Virus record (IMG/VR): IMGVR_UViG_3300047323_000678
DNA length: 64,000 nt
Strand: one strand, 5' to 3'
DNA from: a virus
Taxonomy: Duplodnaviria; Heunggongvirae; Uroviricota; Caudoviricetes
The notes under the pieces are model-generated. The model was not told where the DNA came from. It did no database searches and saw nothing but the letters and a program-made list of their open reading frames with translations. The position numbers and the translations under genes were made by a program. The number at the start of each line of letters is the position of its first letter. The stretch's first letter is position 1. Of this stretch, positions 4,137-20,575 are shown piece by piece.

Positions 4137-5369
4137 TTAAATTACAAGAGCAAAATGCTTTTTACCTTTTTTAATTAGGATTGGTTTTGAAAACTGAAAC
4201 TCTTTCATATCTTCGGTAATCTTTACTGCCTCTTTACCAAGTTCAAGAACATTGACTGAGTTTTCTTTAATTGCTTGAGTAGCTTTTGTCATTGAACCCA
4301 GCAGTTCAGTTTCAACCAATACTTGTTTAAGCTCTTGAATATTAGTCAGATTTTTTTCAGATACAGGAATAATAGCTTTTAGAATATTAATACCTGTATC
4401 GGACAATTCAAACTTTTTACCCGAAAACAGCAATTCAGCAACTTCTTGAACACTTTGGCACATTTCTGCTCCATGAATCAGAGTGGTCATTTCTACTGCC
4501 AAAGCTTTTTGAGCCGCACGAAGTTCAGGACGATTAATAGTGCTATCTTCAAGCTCCGAAATTTTTTCATGAGACAAGAAAGTGTATAGCTTCAATAACT
4601 TAACAACATCAGCATCAGCAGTATTAAGCCAAAATTGGAAAAACTCCCAAGGTGAAGTTTTATTTGCATCTAGCCAAACAGAACCTTTTTCACTCTTGCC
4701 GAATTTAGTTCCATCAGATTTAGTCAGCAATGGGAAAGTCAGTGCAAAGCCTTCTTTCTGATTACGACGAAGAAGGTCAAGACCTGAACACATATTACCG
4801 AATTGATCTGAACCACCAATTTGCAATTGGCAATTAAACTTTTTTGCGAGATGCAAGTAGTCATTGCCTTGGAAAAGCATGTAGCTGAATTCTGTAAAAG
4901 AAAGACCATCACCATTTAGGCGAGAACTTACTGAATCGCGTGCAAGCATAGCACCGATAGAAAAATTCTTACCAATATGACGCATAAAGTCGATAACGGA
5001 CATATTTTTAGTCCAGTCAAGATTATTAACAGTTTTAACTTGAGTGATAGATGCAAGTTGCTTACCAATAGCTTCACTATTATGCAGGACAACCTCTTCC
5101 ATTAAAGCAACACGCTCTTGAGACTTACCGCTTGGATCACCAATAAAGCCGGTAGCTCCACCAATAAGAGCAAGCGGGTTGTGACCATGCTGCTTAAAGC
5201 GCATGAGTGAAATCATTGGAATAAGGTGGCCAACATGAAGAGAGTCGGCAGTAGGATCAAAACCGCAGTAGAGGGTAATACTTTCAGAATCTAAAAGTTT
5301 ATCAAGCTCTTCTTTATTAGAGCATTGATGAATCAACCCACGCCATTCCAAGTCATCAATAAGTTTCAT
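4137..5369 (-). CDS. tyrS: tyrosine--tRNA ligase
   Basis: LYCGFDPTADSLHVGH (HIGH), QIGGSDQFGN, KFGKS (KMSKS), C-terminal KKGKK S4-like end. Confidence 0.97.
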   Translation of the reverse strand: MKLIDDLEWRGLIHQCSNKEELDKLLDSESITLYCGFDPTADSLHVGHLIPMISLMRFKQHGHNPLALIGGATGFIGDPSGKSQERVALMEEVVLHNSEAIGKQLASITQVKTVNNLDWTKNMSVIDFMRHIGKNFSIGAMLARDSVSSRLNGDGLSFTEFSYMLFQGNDYLHLAKKFNCQLQIGGSDQFGNMCSGLDLLRRNQKEGFALTFPLLTKSDGTKFGKSEKGSVWLDANKTSPWEFFQFWLNTADADVVKLLKLYTFLSHEKISELEDSTINRPELRAAQKALAVEMTTLIHGAEMCQSVQEVAELLFSGKKFELSDTGINILKAIIPVSEKNLTNIQELKQVLVETELLGSMTKATQAIKENSVNVLELGKEAVKITEDMKEFQFSKPILIKKGKKHFALVI

Positions 5370-5615: not shown

Positions 5616-5880
5616 GTCAATAACCCCTGCCTTCAGGCAGGAGCTTGAAAAAGCTCAAATTGACCAGACCAAGTTAAGAAATTAACTTAAACGATAGTTA
5701 GGAATATATAGGTACCTGCGGATATCGCCTTAGTCTACTGCTCTACGGTTTGTTATTAAAAGTTCTGTGAGGTAGGAACAGTGTAACAAACATTGAAAAC
5801 CCTAGCATATCTGGTCGAAAGGAAGTCGTAATTTATTATTGGTAAAAGATAACATTTTACGCATTACATCGCAAGATGAT
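5616..5880 (+). ncRNA. IscB-associated omega RNA (HEARO-like); boundaries approximate
   Basis: Starts GTCAATAACCCCTGCCTTCAGGCAGGAGCTTG...TTGACCAG with multiple hairpins and a ...CTGGTCGAAAGG segment, directly upstream of iscB. Confidence 0.8.
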
Positions 5881-5927
5881 AAGTTTTATTTTAACTTATA
5901 AAATTAATTGTTTTATTGGAATTAAAA

Positions 5928-7166
5928 ATGGTATATGTTTTAAATAAATGCGGTAAACCTCTAATGCCTTGCTCAATAAGAAAGGCTAGGATTCTTCTAT
6001 GTCAAAATAAAGTAAAAGTTGTTAGTAAAACACCATTTACCATTCAGCTTTTACATGGTGCTACTGGTTATAAACAAAAAATCATTGCTGCACTTGATAC
6101 AGGTTCTGTTGTTGTTGGTTGTGCAGCAACAGCTAATAATATGGTCATTTATCAGTCAGAAGTCACACTCCGTAACGACATTTCTAAAAAACTTAAAGAA
6201 AGAGCAATGTATAGGAGAAATCGGCGTAGTAAGAAAACTAGGTATCGCAAAGCTCGATTTAATAATCGTTCTGCTTCTTTTAGAAAAGGCCGTTTAGCAC
6301 CGTCTATTAAATCTAAAATTGATAGTCATTTAAGAGAAGTTAATTTTGTTAATAGTATTTTACCGGTAACTCAATGGAACTTTGAATTGGCTTCTTTTGA
6401 CATTCATAAAATAACAAATCCTAATGTTGTTGGAGTTGATTATCAAAATGGTCCACAAAAAGGTTTTTATAATGTAAAAAGTTATATTTTACATCGAGAT
6501 AATTATAAGTGTCAGTCTGGACAAAAAATTACTCATAGTAAAAAGTTACATGTTCATCATAAACACTTTAAGTCAAATGGTGGTTCAGATACTCCAAGTA
6601 ATTTAATTACATTATGTGAAACTTGTCACGAAGACTTACATAAAGAAAAATTTGAATTAAAAGGCAAAAGATCTAAAACAAAACATGCCACAGAAATGGG
6701 TTTGATTAAGTCCCAATTAAGTAAATGCTCAGTAAAACACAATTTGACTTTTGGTTATGAAACTAAATTCAAAAGAGAACAATTTTTAAAATGGGATAAA
6801 ACTCATGCAAATGATGCAGTTGCAGCTTGTTTAAAAGATGGTCAGATAGTTAAGCCTATGGCAATTATACTGATTAAAAAACATATATCTAAAGGTGATT
6901 ATAAACAAACATTTGGTTCACATAGCCAACTTAAAATACCAACAGGTAAATTATTTGGATTAAGAAAAGGTGATAAGGTAAGAACACCAAGAGGTATTGG
7001 TTTTATTAAAGGAAAAAGAAGTCGTGGTTATTTTTCCATCTCAGATTTGGATAATAATGTAATTCATTTAACTGAAAAAGTACAAAACTGTGTAAGACTT
7101 GCAGCAAGAACAACAACACAAGTCGAAGAACTTAATTTAATCGTATTAATTTCAAGAAGAAAATAG
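5928..7166 (+). CDS. iscB: RNA-guided endonuclease IscB (IS200/IS605 OMEGA)
   Basis: GKPLMP N-terminus, RuvC-I ALDTGS, RRNRR bridge helix, RuvC-II FELASFD, HNH VHH...NLITLCETCH, RuvC-III HANDA; ATG 5928 preferred over TTG 5916. Confidence 0.95.
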   Translation: MVYVLNKCGKPLMPCSIRKARILLCQNKVKVVSKTPFTIQLLHGATGYKQKIIAALDTGSVVVGCAATANNMVIYQSEVTLRNDISKKLKERAMYRRNRRSKKTRYRKARFNNRSASFRKGRLAPSIKSKIDSHLREVNFVNSILPVTQWNFELASFDIHKITNPNVVGVDYQNGPQKGFYNVKSYILHRDNYKCQSGQKITHSKKLHVHHKHFKSNGGSDTPSNLITLCETCHEDLHKEKFELKGKRSKTKHATEMGLIKSQLSKCSVKHNLTFGYETKFKREQFLKWDKTHANDAVAACLKDGQIVKPMAIILIKKHISKGDYKQTFGSHSQLKIPTGKLFGLRKGDKVRTPRGIGFIKGKRSRGYFSISDLDNNVIHLTEKVQNCVRLAARTTTQVEELNLIVLISRRK

Positions 7167-9677: not shown

Positions 9678-9833
9678 ATGCAAGGTTCCAAAACTGCTAA
9701 TTTCGTAAAATCGGTTAAGCGTTCGAAGGCTTTTGATGATGGTTACGGTAGCCGTAGCACTAAGAAAAACAATCATCACAAGCAAGAGCGTGCCAAAGCT
9801 AACAAGCAGCGTGTAGAATACGACTCGCAATAA
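9678..9833 (+). CDS. small basic protein MQGSKT family, copy 1 (51 aa, not in ORF track)
   Basis: GAGGT RBS, own promoter and terminator; MQGSKTANFVKSVKRSKAFDDGYGS...; paralog at 13618. Confidence 0.8.
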   Translation: MQGSKTANFVKSVKRSKAFDDGYGSRSTKKNNHHKQERAKANKQRVEYDSQ

Positions 9834-11848: not shown

Positions 11849-11992
11849 ATGGCTAAAGTTTTTATAATTTGGATAGTTTTTTCTTTAGTGGCTTTTCTGT
11901 ATCAAATTTATACTAAGCGTAACTGGAAAATAGCTATTCAGCAAAGCACTATCCAGGGATTTGTTCTCTCAATTTTTGTGATGCTTCCGTAG
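11849..11992 (+). CDS. small membrane protein (47 aa, not in ORF track)
   Basis: GAGGAG RBS; MAKVFIIWIVFSLVAFLYQIYTKRNWKIAIQQSTIQGF... Confidence 0.7.
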   Translation: MAKVFIIWIVFSLVAFLYQIYTKRNWKIAIQQSTIQGFVLSIFVMLP

Positions 11993-12088: not shown

Positions 12089-12235
12089 ATGATCAATAAA
12101 GCAGCAATGTTGTAGTTGGGACTGATAATTACTAATTTTTTGTATCAGACAATCACCAATAGGAATTGAAAAAAAGCGGGTAAAATTTCATTTTTCCAAG
12201 CAGTGGTATTTGGAATGTTTATCGTAGCTAATTAA
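12089..12235 (+). pseudogene. small membrane protein paralog with two in-frame stops
   Basis: AGGAG RBS; MINKAAML*LGLIITNFLYQTITNRN*KKAGKISFFQAVVF...; TAG 12113, TGA 12167; aligns with 11849 and 12600 ORFs. Confidence 0.7.
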
Positions 12236-13617: not shown

Positions 13618-13776
13618 ATGCAAGGTTCTAAAACTGACAACTTCGTTAAATCGGCAAAGCGTTCGAAAAGTTTTGATGATGGATACAGTGGTCGTCAAGG
13701 TGGGAAGAAGAATGATTTCCACCGTCAATCTCGCAGCAATGGCAACAAAGCAGGAAAATACCAAAAACAAGATTAG
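13618..13776 (+). CDS. small basic protein MQGSKT family, copy 2 (52 aa, not in ORF track)
   Basis: AAGGGG RBS, upstream TATAATAATTTCATC; MQGSKTDNFVKSAKRSKSFDDGYSG... Confidence 0.8.
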   Translation: MQGSKTDNFVKSAKRSKSFDDGYSGRQGGKKNDFHRQSRSNGNKAGKYQKQD

Positions 13777-14808: not shown

Positions 14809-14828
14809 AAAGGGGCTACTGCCCCTTT
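14808..14828. terminator. bidirectional terminator ending the minus-strand operon
   Basis: AAAAGGGGC-TACT-GCCCCTTT. Confidence 0.8.
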
Positions 14829-14834
14829 AGTTTT

Positions 14835-15248
14835 TTAATTTTTTGCAATTTGTTGAACTTCAACAATCAATGCATCAAATTTCTCTCTTGTAATTAGTTC
14901 TTTAAATGGTTCATAAAGAAGATTGCTATAATATTGATTAGGATAGTTACTGGTAAAAAAACTTAGAGCAGTGAGATAGCCTACAGTATGCTCTATAAAT
15001 CCTCTTGATAATGGCTTGCCTCTAACAATATTATAAAGAATATGATGTTCAGGATGTAAAAATCCTTTAACTTTTACTTTATGAATTTTAGATTCATATT
15101 TTCTAGTATTAGGATTATAAACTTTAATTTCTTCTTCTTTATAAATTGGCTTTCTTCTCTTATCATTGCTAGCAGTCTTCCACATAGCAATAAATTCTTG
15201 TTTAGTAATAGTTTGTATCTGTTTAATTTCATTGTTAATAGTTTCCAT
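14835..15248 (-). CDS. hypothetical protein (HHILYNIVRGK motif)
   Basis: 137 aa, AAGGAG RBS. Confidence 0.8.
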   Translation of the reverse strand: METINNEIKQIQTITKQEFIAMWKTASNDKRRKPIYKEEEIKVYNPNTRKYESKIHKVKVKGFLHPEHHILYNIVRGKPLSRGFIEHTVGYLTALSFFTSNYPNQYYSNLLYEPFKELITREKFDALIVEVQQIAKN

Positions 15249-15323
15249 AATAATCTCCTTAAGTTGTAAATGGAATTTTTTAATTTTTACTTCTATTTTT
15301 AAACATTCACTACTTAATAAAAA

Positions 15324-15350
15324 TTATGGTGGTTTAAAGATCTACAACAT
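15324..15350 (-). other. RBS-led minigene ATG TTG TAG ATC TTT AAA CCA CCA TAA (putative leader peptide)
   Basis: AAGGAG RBS 6 nt upstream; first 11 nt identical to the start of the Pth2-like gene at 17828. Confidence 0.6.
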
Positions 15351-15366
15351 ATTATTCTCCTTGATA

Positions 15367-15531
15367 TTATTTATTTATTTTTTGATTTTTTAATGCAGCA
15401 ATGTACCCTGCTTTAAAATAATCCCAAGATAACAGCCATTCATAAGTATCTCTGAAATGATCATTTTCTTTTTCCTTTGACCAAAATTCATAAATTTGTA
15501 GGTCTAAATCTTCTTCATCTATCTCAGACAT
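15367..15531 (-). CDS. hypothetical protein (54 aa, not in ORF track)
   Basis: MSEIDEEDLDLQIYEFWSKE...WDYFKAGYIAALKNQKINK*; overlaps the upstream stop and fills an operon gap. Confidence 0.65.
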   Translation of the reverse strand: MSEIDEEDLDLQIYEFWSKEKENDHFRDTYEWLLSWDYFKAGYIAALKNQKINK

Positions 15532-16045
15532 TTTCATTACCTGTAGCTTGATTTTCCGCTTCTTCTTTTTTCTGTCTATCTACATCATCAGAAAATTCTT
15601 TCCATAAGCGCTGTCCTTCAGCCTTACCCCACTTAACAGTGCTAGTAATTCCAAATAATTCTTCGGCATGACATCTAGAGCAAGAACTAGGAAAGCCAGT
15701 GCAATCACCACTATGAATGTCAGATAATCCATATATATAAACGGTTTTAAACCAATCATTATCTACAAAAGCTTCAATAATGTCATCATTCCATCTATTC
15801 ATGTATTTATTCCATCTTTCAATCGACCTTTCTGCTTCTTTTTCTACCATTTCTTTTGTGTAAGGATAGCTTGGTTCTTTCCCTTTAGTTAATTCATAAT
15901 GCTGAATAAGAAAATGTATCATTTCCCAAATATTATTTTCCATTGCATAGCGAGCTTTAGCTAATTTGATTTCACTTTCTGATGGCTCATAAGCTGGCGG
16001 ATTTAAAATTTCTTGATTTTTATATTTATACATAATATTCTCCAA
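15524..16045 (-). CDS. hypothetical protein with HxGDCT..C..CHAE metal-binding motif
   Basis: HSGDCTGFPSSCSRCHAEELFGI; related to next ORF. Confidence 0.75.
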   Translation of the reverse strand: MENIMYKYKNQEILNPPAYEPSESEIKLAKARYAMENNIWEMIHFLIQHYELTKGKEPSYPYTKEMVEKEAERSIERWNKYMNRWNDDIIEAFVDNDWFKTVYIYGLSDIHSGDCTGFPSSCSRCHAEELFGITSTVKWGKAEGQRLWKEFSDDVDRQKKEEAENQATGNENV

Positions 16046-16047
16046 AA

Positions 16048-16641
16048 TTAGTTTTCATCTTTAAAATGTTCATTTTTATAATTAACTAGCCAATCATGTG
16101 CTAATTTAGCGTCAGCCATCCAACGCGGAACATATTGCTCATATCCACCTAATTTTTTCCATGCTTCACTAGTATAATGAGCAGGATTAATTTCATAATT
16201 AGCCAAATAAGCAATTGCTTCATCTATGCTTTTTTCATTATTTTTGCCAAAAGCCCCACCAAACTTATTAGCAGCATGTTTTCCTAATCCTGGAATGGTA
16301 TCAATTCCAAGCAAATATTCAGCATGGCACTTAGAGCAAGAACATGCAACACAAGTGCAATCTCCAACATGATTCCCTTGTAATTCAGTAATATAATGCT
16401 CTAACAATTGATCACATCTTTTATCAATATCTGATTTTTCATCAGTACAATAATATTCAGGATCGGCCGATTTTCTAGCAGATTCCAAGTCAAAATGTTT
16501 TCCTTCTTGCAAATTAAAATGAATATCAAAAAGTAATTCTTCCATCTGTTCTAATTTAATTTTTAACCACATTTCTTTTTTATTATGTTCATCCAAATCT
16601 ACAGTGGTATAAAGCGGATTTTTGTGATAATTAATTTTCAT
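16048..16641 (-). CDS. hypothetical protein with HxGDCT..C..CHAE metal-binding motif
   Basis: HVGDCTCVACSCSKCHAEYLLGI. Confidence 0.75.
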   Translation of the reverse strand: MKINYHKNPLYTTVDLDEHNKKEMWLKIKLEQMEELLFDIHFNLQEGKHFDLESARKSADPEYYCTDEKSDIDKRCDQLLEHYITELQGNHVGDCTCVACSCSKCHAEYLLGIDTIPGLGKHAANKFGGAFGKNNEKSIDEAIAYLANYEINPAHYTSEAWKKLGGYEQYVPRWMADAKLAHDWLVNYKNEHFKDEN

Positions 16642-16652
16642 TTTATTCTTCC

Positions 16653-17024
16653 TTAATTATATTGTTCGTTTTTCTTTTCTGCTTCAAAAATTTCTTCCCA
16701 AGTAAAAGTATGATAAACACAATTCCAATGTTCTTCTGCTTCCCAAGAAAGGTGAATTCCTTCATGACTTACTCTTGCTTCATCATGTTCTAAATGATTT
16801 CCACTTCTAGAATATGGTGCAATGTTTTGTTCTTCAGATAATTGTTGTGCAATTTCTTTATACTTATCAGTTATTTTTCTTAAATTTTCTTTATGCCATG
16901 AGGTTTCATTATAATAATCGCGGTCAGCTTTAGTCTTGATTTCTGAACGCTTATTTTTTGCTTTTGAAATTTCTGTAATAGATTGCTGAATATTAGTTTT
17001 GATATCTTCAATTTTGTCATTCAT
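16653..17024 (-). CDS. hypothetical protein
   Basis: 123 aa, GGAG RBS, in operon. Confidence 0.75.
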   Translation of the reverse strand: MNDKIEDIKTNIQQSITEISKAKNKRSEIKTKADRDYYNETSWHKENLRKITDKYKEIAQQLSEEQNIAPYSRSGNHLEHDEARVSHEGIHLSWEAEEHWNCVYHTFTWEEIFEAEKKNEQYN

Positions 17025-17040
17025 TTTATTCTCCCAATAA

Positions 17041-17490
17041 TTAATTATATTTAGCCATTAAGCGTGCAAGTTCAGCTTTTTCTGCATCTTCTTGACGCTG
17101 TTTTTCACGAAGTCGAAATGCTTCCTGATCTTGTAATTTACGCTCAGCAATTTCCTTATCTTTCTTTTCTTTTTCAGCTTTTAATTTTGCATAAATTTCA
17201 GTAGCTAATGTTTCAATGTCAGAAGCATGCGAAATTAATTTATCTTGATCTTCATTGCTTAATGAATCATGTAAATCATTTGCATTATGTCCATTAATAA
17301 GAAGAGTGATTTCGGCATCAGAATTAGTAAACATAGAATAGCCATAATGCTGAACAAGATCATTTCTCTCCATATCACTAAAGTGTCGAATTTCAAGATT
17401 GGAATCTTGTCCAGTATGGTAATCACCACAACGGTCATGCCAACCTTGTTCGCCAGGAGTATAAACAATAAGGGTATAAAGTGTTTTCAT
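17041..17490 (-). CDS. hypothetical protein with C-terminal coiled coil
   Basis: Start reassigned to ATG 17490 (AGGAG RBS, TAATG overlap with the upstream gene's stop). Confidence 0.75.
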   Translation of the reverse strand: MKTLYTLIVYTPGEQGWHDRCGDYHTGQDSNLEIRHFSDMERNDLVQHYGYSMFTNSDAEITLLINGHNANDLHDSLSNEDQDKLISHASDIETLATEIYAKLKAEKEKKDKEIAERKLQDQEAFRLREKQRQEDAEKAELARLMAKYN

Positions 17491-17828
17491 TATTTGTTCT
17501 CCTGTTTTGGATGCCAAAGCTTGAAATTTTTAAAAAGATGGCGATGCTTTTCAGTAATAGGCTTAGTAGCGAATGCAGTTAAACCTGTATTCTTATAAGG
17601 CTCAAAAAATGGATAGCAATCAATTTGCGGACGAAATTCTGCCAGCAAAGATTCTAATTCTTCTTTGTTTTTAGTACCGAAAATAATAATGGAATTTGCT
17701 TCGCTAGATGCTGAGTTTGCTAACCCAGATTCATGAGCGGCATGAGAAGCTTGAACAAGCTGCTGAGGGATTGAAATATCTTGACGGACGAAGATATAGA
17801 CATATTTTTTTTCAGCAATCTACAACAT
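17490..17828 (-). CDS. peptidyl-tRNA hydrolase type 2 (Pth2/PTRHD1)-like protein with in-frame TAG at codon 3
   Basis: AGGAG RBS, ML*IAEKKYVYIFVRQDISIPQQLVQASHAAHE...FFEPYKNTGLTAFATKPITEKHRHLFKNFKLW...*; 113 codons; not in ORF track. Confidence 0.75.
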
Positions 17829-17863: not shown

Positions 17864-17893
17864 ATTGTAGACTTAAACAATCTTTTATGTCAA
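17864..17893 (-). promoter_or_regulatory. sigma70 promoter of the minus-strand operon
   Basis: TTGACA-N18-TACAAT on the minus strand. Confidence 0.65.
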
Positions 17894-18909: not shown

Positions 18910-18970
18910 TACATATCTAGTGTTTCGTAAAATTTAAATTTTCTTCTTAATCCAAAACTTGGAGGTTCTA

Positions 18971-19651
18971 ATGGTTACTAAATTCAAAACTCTGCTGGCT
19001 ACTGCAATGATCGCTTTCTCCTTCTCGGCTCAAGCGGGTATTATTTTGACCCAAGGTACTGCGGTTACTGATCCTTCGCATACTGAAAACTTTGAAAGTG
19101 GTACTGCGGGTAATAACATCACTGACCAATTTTCTGCCAATGGTCTGACTTTCAAAACTTTGGGCGATGCAGGTATTGCTTTGGTTGGTAGCAATGTCTG
19201 CCCCAATACCAATGGGGTATCAGGTAAATATCTTGCAATGGGTATGCGGTACCCATGCACTCAAAATACTGCACTGAATGCAGTTTCGATGATGTTTGAT
19301 GGTGATGTTGAAGCACTGTCTTGGACTGGTTTCAGCCGCACTATTGGTAATGGCTTTAAAGTTGAGTTTTGGAAAGATGGTCAAATGCTTGATAGTAATA
19401 GCACCTTTTATGACAGCTTCAATAAGTTTGAAAACAAAACTGTCCTCGTAAGTGGTGGGGTTTTCGATGAAATCCGTTTTATCGAAGCGAGTGGTTTCCA
19501 AGGTTTCTTTACTATTGACAACATGGCATGGAAAATGGCTCCTGTTGTAGTTGAACCGCCTGTTTCGGATGTTCCTGAGCCTAGCATTGCTCTGCTGTTC
19601 GGTGCAGGTATGATTGGTATGGGCTTCATGCGCAAGAAAAAGGCAGTTTAA
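18971..19651 (+). CDS. PEP-CTERM exosortase substrate protein
   Basis: GGAGG RBS, signal peptide ...SAQA, C-terminal VPEPS-TM-RKKK. Confidence 0.92.
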   Translation: MVTKFKTLLATAMIAFSFSAQAGIILTQGTAVTDPSHTENFESGTAGNNITDQFSANGLTFKTLGDAGIALVGSNVCPNTNGVSGKYLAMGMRYPCTQNTALNAVSMMFDGDVEALSWTGFSRTIGNGFKVEFWKDGQMLDSNSTFYDSFNKFENKTVLVSGGVFDEIRFIEASGFQGFFTIDNMAWKMAPVVVEPPVSDVPEPSIALLFGAGMIGMGFMRKKKAV

Positions 19652-19668
19652 ATTGGCAATAATCTGAG

Positions 19669-19697
19669 AAAACCTAGCCAAGAGGCTAGGTTTTTTT
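19669..19697 (+). terminator. intrinsic terminator
   Basis: AAACCTAGCC-AAGA-GGCTAGGTTTTTTT. Confidence 0.85.
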
Positions 19698-19741
19698 GTA
19701 TTTAAAATTTGGAAAAATGATTTTCTACCGAAAATTTTAAT

Positions 19742-19835
19742 TGTCGATATTCTTTACATCAACAATGTAAATATAGAAATAGAATATATAAGTGATTGAT
19801 TTCATTATAAATACTGTACTTGGCACAGTATTTGC
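19742..19835 (+). promoter_or_regulatory. sigma54 promoter with enhancer and IHF site
   Basis: TGTCG-N6-TTTACA 19742-19758; TAAGTGATTGATT 19789-19801; TGGCAC-N5-TTGC 19821-19835. Confidence 0.8.
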
Positions 19836-19891
19836 TCTATAATAAATACAATTTAAAGTAGTTTCTATCAATGTTCAAAAGAGGGGATTCC

Positions 19892-20575
19892 ATGATGACT
19901 AAATTTAAAGCACTGATTAGTGCAGCATTGTTTGCTGTTTCTTTCTCGGCTCAAGCCAATATTATTCTTAATGGTGATAAAGGACTAACCAATACCAATC
20001 ATTTTGAAAATTTTGATAATGGTTCTGTAGGAAATAATGTATCAGAACAATTTGCAAGTAATGGAATTAATTTTGATACTTGGGGCAAATCGGGTATTAC
20101 TTTGACTACCAATAGTGTCTGCAACAATGCTGATGGTGGCATGTCAAATCAATACCTCATGATGGGTATGGCTTATCCATGTGCTAAAGACAATAAAAAA
20201 GTCAGTATGGTGTCACTGATGTTTTCAGAAAATGTTTCGGAACTGTCTTGGTTAGGCTTTAATCGTGCGATTGGCAAAGGTTTTACTATTCAGGCTCTTT
20301 ATGATGGCATGATTGTTTCAGAGCTTGATTTTGATAATAAAAATCAATTTGAAAACAAGTATGTAAACATCTCAGGTGATATTTTCAACGAACTACGCTT
20401 CATTGAAAACGGCAACTGGACTGGTTCGTTTGGTATTGATAACATGGCTTGGAATGTAACTACAGCAGTTCCAAGTGGTGAAGTTCCATTGCCTGGCTCT
20501 GTAGCCTTGATGGGCATTGGTATGCTTGGATTAGGTTTCATGCGTAAAAGGTCTAATCAGGTTAATCGTAACTGA
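19892..20575 (+). CDS. PEP-CTERM (VPLP variant) protein, paralog of previous
   Basis: Signal peptide ...SAQA, C-terminal VPLPGS-TM-RKR; shares ENF, RFIE and IDNMAW motifs with 18971 ORF. Confidence 0.9.
   Translation: MMTKFKALISAALFAVSFSAQANIILNGDKGLTNTNHFENFDNGSVGNNVSEQFASNGINFDTWGKSGITLTTNSVCNNADGGMSNQYLMMGMAYPCAKDNKKVSMVSLMFSENVSELSWLGFNRAIGKGFTIQALYDGMIVSELDFDNKNQFENKYVNISGDIFNELRFIENGNWTGSFGIDNMAWNVTTAVPSGEVPLPGSVALMGIGMLGLGFMRKRSNQVNRN

Follow-up and report, generated by a model that had tools for sequence, protein, structure and literature searches.

The locus described here raises the question of why an operon should carry, ahead of its last gene, a very short reading frame interrupted by an amber codon, and why its first gene should begin in nearly the same way. 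In the window (the whole stretch of 64,000 nucleotides that was analysed), the minus-strand leader reads ATG TTG TAG ATC TTT AAA CCA CCA TAA (15350-15324) and corresponds to M-L-TAG-I-F-K-P-P-TAA, an ORF of nine codons (15324..15350) with its ATG at 15350. A Shine-Dalgarno (SD) sequence AAGGAG (15362-15357), conserved in the related locus L019, precedes the start codon with a 6-nt spacer. The amber codon, hereafter the gate, is codon 3 (15344-15342), the two proline codons CCA CCA are located at 15332-15327 and the final TAA at 15326-15324. On the same strand, 75 nt further on, lies the ATG (15248) of a gene coding for a protein of 137 aa (14835..15248) from an H-x-x-L-Y-N-I-x-R-G family, called here the partner. 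On re-reading, sequence, position and spacing were exactly those of the first-pass annotation, and a search of Rfam gave no match to the leader.

The nearly identical start context that the same annotation had reported for a Pth2-like gene was also present. At 17828, AGGAGAAATATT ATG TTG TAG ATT opens a minus-strand gene (17490..17828) with a TAG at codon 3 (17822-17820), after which the frame stays open for 109 codons. By itself, ATGTTGTAG occurs three times in the window compared to 0.62 expected, a number equalled in 3 of 100 shuffles. The third copy (12107, plus strand) was rejected as unrelated; it sits in a pseudogene of a small membrane-protein family (12089-12235, plus strand; other members at 11849 and 12600) broken by two nonsense codons, TAG and TGA. 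The generic pattern SD-ATG-(1-7 codons)-TAG-(1-7 codons)-Pro-Pro, picked after the data had been seen, had a single match in the window compared to 0.025 in shuffled sequence, 5 of 200 shuffles reaching one. The case for the leader is stronger on conservation than on motif statistics.

A predicted sigma-70-like promoter, TTGACA-18-TACAAT (17864..17893, minus strand, 11 of 12 consensus positions), and a predicted intrinsic-terminator-like hairpin (14809..14828, minus strand) bracket seven genes, the first being the Pth2-like gene and the last the partner. The five ORFs between them (15367..17490, minus strand; 149, 123, 197, about 170 and 56 aa) showed no early TAG gate, and that of 123 aa is absent from L019. 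Two adjacent genes of the operon (15524-16641, minus strand), both found in L019, have in common a Cys-rich G-D-C-T...C-S-x-C-H-A-E motif and their products likely bind metal.

The window is AT-rich and codes mostly for hypothetical proteins, with annotations for TyrRS, YqeY, GGDEF-EAL and an IscB-HEARO element. The latter consists of a HEARO RNA (5616-5831, plus strand) followed by an RRXRR-HNH (IscB-type) gene (5916-7166, plus strand). The TyrRS gene (4137-5369, minus strand), about 10 kb from the operon, codes for an enzyme that might charge an amber tRNA. A short basic ORF starting M-Q-G-S-K-T is present twice (9678-9833 and 13618-13776, plus strand), and there are two tandem PEP-CTERM-type exported proteins (18959-20575, plus strand), an unusual cargo for a phage-like replicon. 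An identical partner protein is encoded on one contig of 2,230,803 bases, and no relatives of the partner or of the Pth2-like protein were found in GTDB genomes, where the single match to the leader was due to chance. Because the contig reaches about 2.2 Mb, GTDB gave no relatives and the module is otherwise viral, we infer that the source is a giant replicon, phage-like or extrachromosomal. The standard code applies in the window: the 53 ORFs of at least 125 aa end in TAA (41), TGA (8) or TAG (4), and coding density is 0.73 with code 11 compared to 0.77 with TAG open. Genome-wide TAG recoding (code 15) was rejected in view of the four long ORFs ending in TAG and the scant gain of about 3 points.

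We then considered whether the leader is kept in relatives. Loci were picked by protein similarity and their upstream DNA was read afterwards, to avoid circularity. In L019, whose partner protein is 66% identical, the flanks have drifted; the leader is kept and carries TTA for TTG, a silent change. A stop-gated Pro-Pro leader was present in all nine confident loci with upstream DNA (L019, L001, L028, L029, L043, L050 and the cultured phages XbC2, GAP32 and fHe-Yen9-03, these three being those fetched of the 10 records matched by the L001 homologue), in each case as an ATG, an early in-frame stop and, three to seven codons on, an in-frame Pro-Pro. Lacking upstream DNA, L020 was left out of this count, and no leader stood upstream of L025 and L026, which are weak partner matches within longer ORFs. 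A second partner family carried the leader in 3/3 cultured phages fetched (of 6 records). Confident partner homologues lie beside Pth2-like genes in L001, L028, L029, L043 and L050. The two-state leader proposed in the first-pass annotation is thus supported both by conservation of the leader before partner homologues and by co-occurrence with Pth2-like genes in which an early TAG is likewise present. By sequence, the leader reads as a putatively translatable upstream ORF with its own ribosome-binding site (RBS), conserved before the gene it would regulate.

The residues ahead of Pro-Pro vary (K, TG, NG, RA, RG, RS, RD), and the pair lies only 6-16 codons into the leader. Several relatives have motifs of the arrest type, RAPP in L001, RGPP in L035 and L039, RSPP in L044 and RDPP in L028; the R-[A/G/S/D]-P-P motif is absent from the window leader, which reads F-K-P-P-stop. 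Of the PP-stop or tmRNA element suggested earlier, the Pro-Pro part held; because the stop after it is present in some relatives only (others read RAPP-N, TGPP-D, RGPP-W or RSPP-S), the PP-stop is not an essential feature. In the leader at L028:1729, two successive TAG gates stand ahead of R-D-P-P, which would sharpen the response. A first exact scan for the leader gave 16 matches; 13 were discarded as members of a single unrelated family that ends in TGG, leaving 3 real ones.

The partner family includes 46 relatives by profile. The window protein gave no direct match in viral contigs or cultured phages, its cultured relatives being reached via the L001 homologue, and neither Pfam nor PHROG matched it. 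Its structure model (pLDDT 91) had no Foldseek match at E 0.001, a best Z of 3.9 in the fold comparison and no counterpart in the Atlas; this lack of a match to the model does not show a new fold. In profile comparisons of the partner groups, HIAY and SIELK were joined at 89% and HELRG and HIAY at 59%. A single partner superfamily is not established, because the window's group joins the others only via a short Y-x-x-x-R-G stretch (8-17%).

For the first gene of the operon, the AlphaFold model (pLDDT 88.9) matched archaeal Pth2 structures (1wn2, 3erj) in Foldseek with E 1e-4 and TM 0.77-0.79, so that a Pth2 fold is predicted, its first beta-strand covering residues 6-12 of the model. The window protein had no match to Pfam PTH2 (PF01981), and three of its relatives pass the cut-off of that family. 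In a weak profile alignment to 2zv3 (E 0.066), Gln and Glu stand at the archaeal Lys and Asp/Thr positions, which we take to be catalytic in archaeal Pth2, and a loop is shorter. Because of these altered motifs and the absent Pfam match, peptidyl-tRNA hydrolase activity of the window protein is uncertain.

Among 31 viral loci with homologues of this gene, 27 have an early in-frame TAG, 1 a TGA and 3 an open frame (22, 1 and 3 of 26 once five duplicates were removed), and the three ungated genes each lie directly behind a leader-gated partner. In cultured phages, 6 of the 7 loci fetched (of 27 records) are TAG-gated; no feature covers the gene in 12 of the 27 records. The start of XacN1 ORF364 is M-K-TAG behind an SD. 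An HD-like domain, scoring under the Pfam cut-off, is fused to the Pth2-like one in the gated gene of XacN1 and RAS14; RsoM2USA has an HD-like gene apart from the Pth2-like one, with an early TAG of its own. Gln occupies the gate position in the protein records P0002, P0004 and P0021, which may be real or reflect the code chosen by the gene caller. Other TAG-gated genes code for a cysteine-dioxygenase-like cupin (L052:5242), a protein of 120 aa (L029:3634) and an HD-like protein (L022:4915).

If the gate is to be read, a suppressor tRNA would be expected, and a CUA tRNA was located within 4 kb of the gated locus in 21 of the 31 viral loci (17/26 without duplicates). In whole records it also lies far from the gate, 7 to about 200 kb off, as in RsoM2USA, RAS14, GAP32, G001, G002 and G005. 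All 12 complete or near-complete records with an intact TAG gate contain it, often at a distance. It was not found in the fragments G003, G006, G009, G010 and G011 (4-69% complete, the matches of G011 being fetched in part), in Hallingskeid, a phage with no gate, or in G004, with an ATG after its TAG. The anticodon follows the gate when the stop differs, with one case each: L035/G007 has TGA in both the Pth2-like gene and the leader and a 75-nt UCA tRNA in its record, and L050 combines a TAA gate and a TAG end with a UUA tRNA. As separate observations, CUA and UUA suppressor-like tRNAs stand side by side at L295:1266-1426 (G001, a 527-kb phage), a CUA tRNA of phage Arash (L024:5307-5381) is labelled tRNA-Phe in GenBank, and another in BUCT-ZZ01 (L181:2263-2338) is unannotated there. 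In Synechococcus phage BUCT-ZZ01 and in phage DSS3_MAL1, all three of tRNA, leader and partner are present.

The DNA itself was scanned for SD-ATG-NNN-TAG-gap-Pro-Pro-stop, giving at least 120 loci in 27 of 64 parts of the data. Clean in-frame matches had a CUA tRNA in 33/71 and a Pth2-like gene in 24/71 cases, compared to 0/49 and 0/49 for the other matches. Forty of the 120 loci had short flanks; the 80 with full flanks reduced to 68 distinct sequences, in which a CUA tRNA lay within 2.5 kb of 27/42 in-frame leaders and 0/26 others (p 1.6e-8, a value that ignores relatedness). Several of the 15 in-frame leaders with no tRNA nearby are clearly chance matches. In the 64-kb window neither ARAGORN, also in relaxed mode, nor Rfam found a CUA tRNA, nor was a suppressor tRNA found in L019; the window is about 3% of the contig, and because the tRNA of relatives is often far from the gate, this absence says little. 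A CUA suppressor tRNA probably lies elsewhere in the replicon.

The 53 suppressor tRNAs collected have the anticodon loop in common, and their acceptor stem and discriminator (A 25, U 17, G 10, C 1) are not conserved, so the amino acid carried is not deducible from these sequences. Such variable ends would fit a gate sited where any residue is tolerated.

The RNA between leader and partner is predicted to fold into a hairpin whose 5' arm (15304..15332, minus strand) comprises the Pro codons, the stop and a downstream U-rich anti-SD, and whose 3' arm (15245..15272, minus strand) comprises the partner SD (15260-15255) and ATG (15248). The 15332-15240 fold has an MFE of -17.1 kcal/mol (z -3.5), and none of 200 shuffles was as stable; in L019, pairing of the SD is predicted to be retained through a different 5' arm. 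Opening the window's RBS was computed to cost 13.2 kcal/mol with the UAG masked and 2.7 with Pro-Pro masked, given an assumed ribosome footprint of 15 nt and the fact that masking more sequence lowers the cost by itself. The window exceeded all 20 shuffled spacers (mean 6.4, maximum 10.8). A first set of 12 leaders showed a drop in 12/12, with no shuffle control. In a second set of 13, overlapping the first in part, it was at least 6 kcal/mol in 8, 2-3.5 in 3 and nil in 2; 5/13 exceeded all shuffled spacers, and the hairpin switch was weak or absent in 5/13 (L029, L181, L183, L184, L185). The footprint of the pause site is thus predicted to overlap the structure that hides the RBS. In AT-rich phages (L060, L064, L068, L071, L083, L118 and L133, around position 2500), a strong leader SD stands before a partner with no SD, and in several of them the predicted hairpin pairs the start-codon region instead.

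With the leader sequence, its conservation, its co-occurrence with Pth2-like genes and the gate-anticodon matching established above, and the hairpin and its opening as predicted, we consider it probable that the leader is a translational attenuator gated by amber suppression, whose output is set by suppressor tRNA against RF1. By default, RF1 would terminate both frames at codon 3, so that no Pth2-like protein is made and the partner RBS stays paired. When the charged CUA suppressor wins, the Pth2-like frame would be read through directly via its own codon-3 TAG, and in the leader the ribosome would pause at Lys-Pro-Pro-UAA on the 5' arm and free the partner RBS. The output would depend on how much charged suppressor tRNA there is relative to RF1. 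Elongation through Pro-Pro and termination after Pro are slow; because EF-P rescues many XPP motifs, KPP might fail to arrest the ribosome in a chain of 7 residues.

The input should be post-transcriptional, because the tRNA often adjoins the gated genes on the same strand. On reasoning, build-up or activation of a stable tRNA during infection is a plausible trigger, loss or inhibition of RF1 might be the trigger as well, and some other cause seems rather unlikely. Translation rescue is suggested by what the module carries, a Pth2 fold and an HD-like domain, and by its tRNA-array setting: the purpose might be to turn on a tRNA- and ribosome-rescue set (the Pth2-fold protein, the partner and, in some phages, the HD-domain protein) when UAG read-through is frequent, and termination sensing is a possible physiological signal. 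A bolder and rather doubtful proposal is that large phages and giant mobile elements carry the tRNA purely as a reporter, competing with the host release factor at stops planted for it, and that a host defence or stress disabling termination raises read-through and turns on a non-canonical Pth2 and a new-fold partner, together an undescribed ribosome-release system. If true, the module would let a phage sense a class of defences, as yet undiscovered, that target release factors.

Other explanations of the gate have to be weighed. Met-Leu-stop might act as a terminating minigene, by drop-off of dipeptidyl-tRNA, for which the bar minigenes of lambda are a precedent, or by re-initiation, the codons after the TAG being incidental or the decayed start of a Pth2-like gene. 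Although M-x-TAG is the commonest form and the two starts in the window have 10 nt in common after the spacer, the gate position ranges from codon 3 to 10, Pro-Pro stays in frame across relatives while its third bases vary, most gated loci offer no in-frame start, ATG or GTG, from the gate to the Pth2 match, and early stops in the SD-ATG-short-stop-long-ORF cases of module loci are TAG 30, TAA 2 and TGA 1. This makes the minigene very improbable. A leader of its own, complete with gate, Pro-Pro and anti-SD hairpin and kept in four or more partner groups and in hosts ranging from proteobacteria to cyanobacteria, is also more than would be needed if steady weak suppression simply kept two harmful or scarcely needed proteins low with no switch, for which a weak RBS is a simpler route. 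Such a damper would agree with the unconserved acceptor ends of the tRNAs and with the fact that tRNA and gated genes frequently adjoin on a single strand (L054, L058, L180, L182), where transcription cannot separate them, and we regard it as improbable.

A sensor using the host only, in which near-cognate host tRNAs read the gate once RF1 runs short or is inhibited, much as in prfB autoregulation, would need no suppressor tRNA, and none was seen in the window or L019; TAG is the stop read by RF1 only, and a Pth2-fold product would suit a response to termination failure. What makes this unlikely is the match of gate codon and phage anticodon for all three stops, together with the CUA tRNA in every complete or near-complete record with an intact TAG gate; the notion of the gate as a reader of host leakiness is likewise disfavoured, since the anticodon tracks the gate codon in relatives. 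The first-pass annotation had neither the anti-SD hairpin nor the suppressor tRNA. Amber suppression by a dedicated phage tRNA is the reading that we retain. The proposed switch, its elements found also in cultured phages, would explain why standard-code phages retain seemingly idle suppressor tRNAs; the module names targets for these tRNAs, allows overlooked annotations to be corrected and draws attention to two uncharacterised proteins related to translation.

Comparable logic is known elsewhere. An early in-frame codon makes expression of prfB (RF2) depend on release-factor competition, and that of the Streptomyces bldA/TTA regulon on one special tRNA. Unlike prfB, the gate would involve in-frame read-through by a dedicated suppressor with no frameshift, and unlike bldA it is a stop codon and not a rare sense codon; in both comparisons the coupled attenuator is a further difference. 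The hairpin logic is akin to that of ermC and mifM. From archaeal and jumbo-phage Pth2 (PF01981), which its predicted fold resembles, the protein appears to differ by Q-Q-x-x-Q-x-x-H and E-P motifs instead of Lys and D-A-G-x-T and by the shorter catalytic loop, and its gene is interrupted by an amber codon and often lacks annotation.

In PMC12992588, which ties RAPP, RGPP, RSPP and RDPP to arrest and does not contain the word 'phage', the SecM, ApdA, ApdP and ApcA attenuators are likewise upstream ORFs with X-X-Pro-Pro; as with them, pausing of the ribosome would expose the RBS downstream. Here, unlike in these systems, Pro-Pro comes after only 6-16 codons, an in-frame stop bars the way to the stall site and the input would be stop suppression, not pulling force or a drug. 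In recoded phages, according to bioRxiv 10.1101/2021.08.26.457843, a CUA or UCA tRNA overrides a host stop as a proposed gene-expression timer; a phage suppressor tRNA acting on a host stop is common to both, whereas the module genomes are standard-code, place the stop near codon 3 of one to three genes and within the leader, not across late genes, and show no fixed acceptor identity. Other studies propose a ribosome-rescue role for jumbo-phage PTH2 (PMC7824862, section 3.4.9), report no targets found for the CUA tRNAs of XacN1 (PMC5852040) and, for crAss-like phages in 2025, ask why phages retain 'non-functioning' suppressor tRNAs (PMC12386605). A search of the openly accessible literature gave no published description of this leader-Pth2 module, which would work like a stalling attenuator joined to a tRNA-gated regulon, with a dedicated suppressor in a standard-code genome as input. 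New here are the gate counts at Pth2-like genes, the TGA and TAA matches, the tRNAs far from their gates and a case from a replicon of megabase size.
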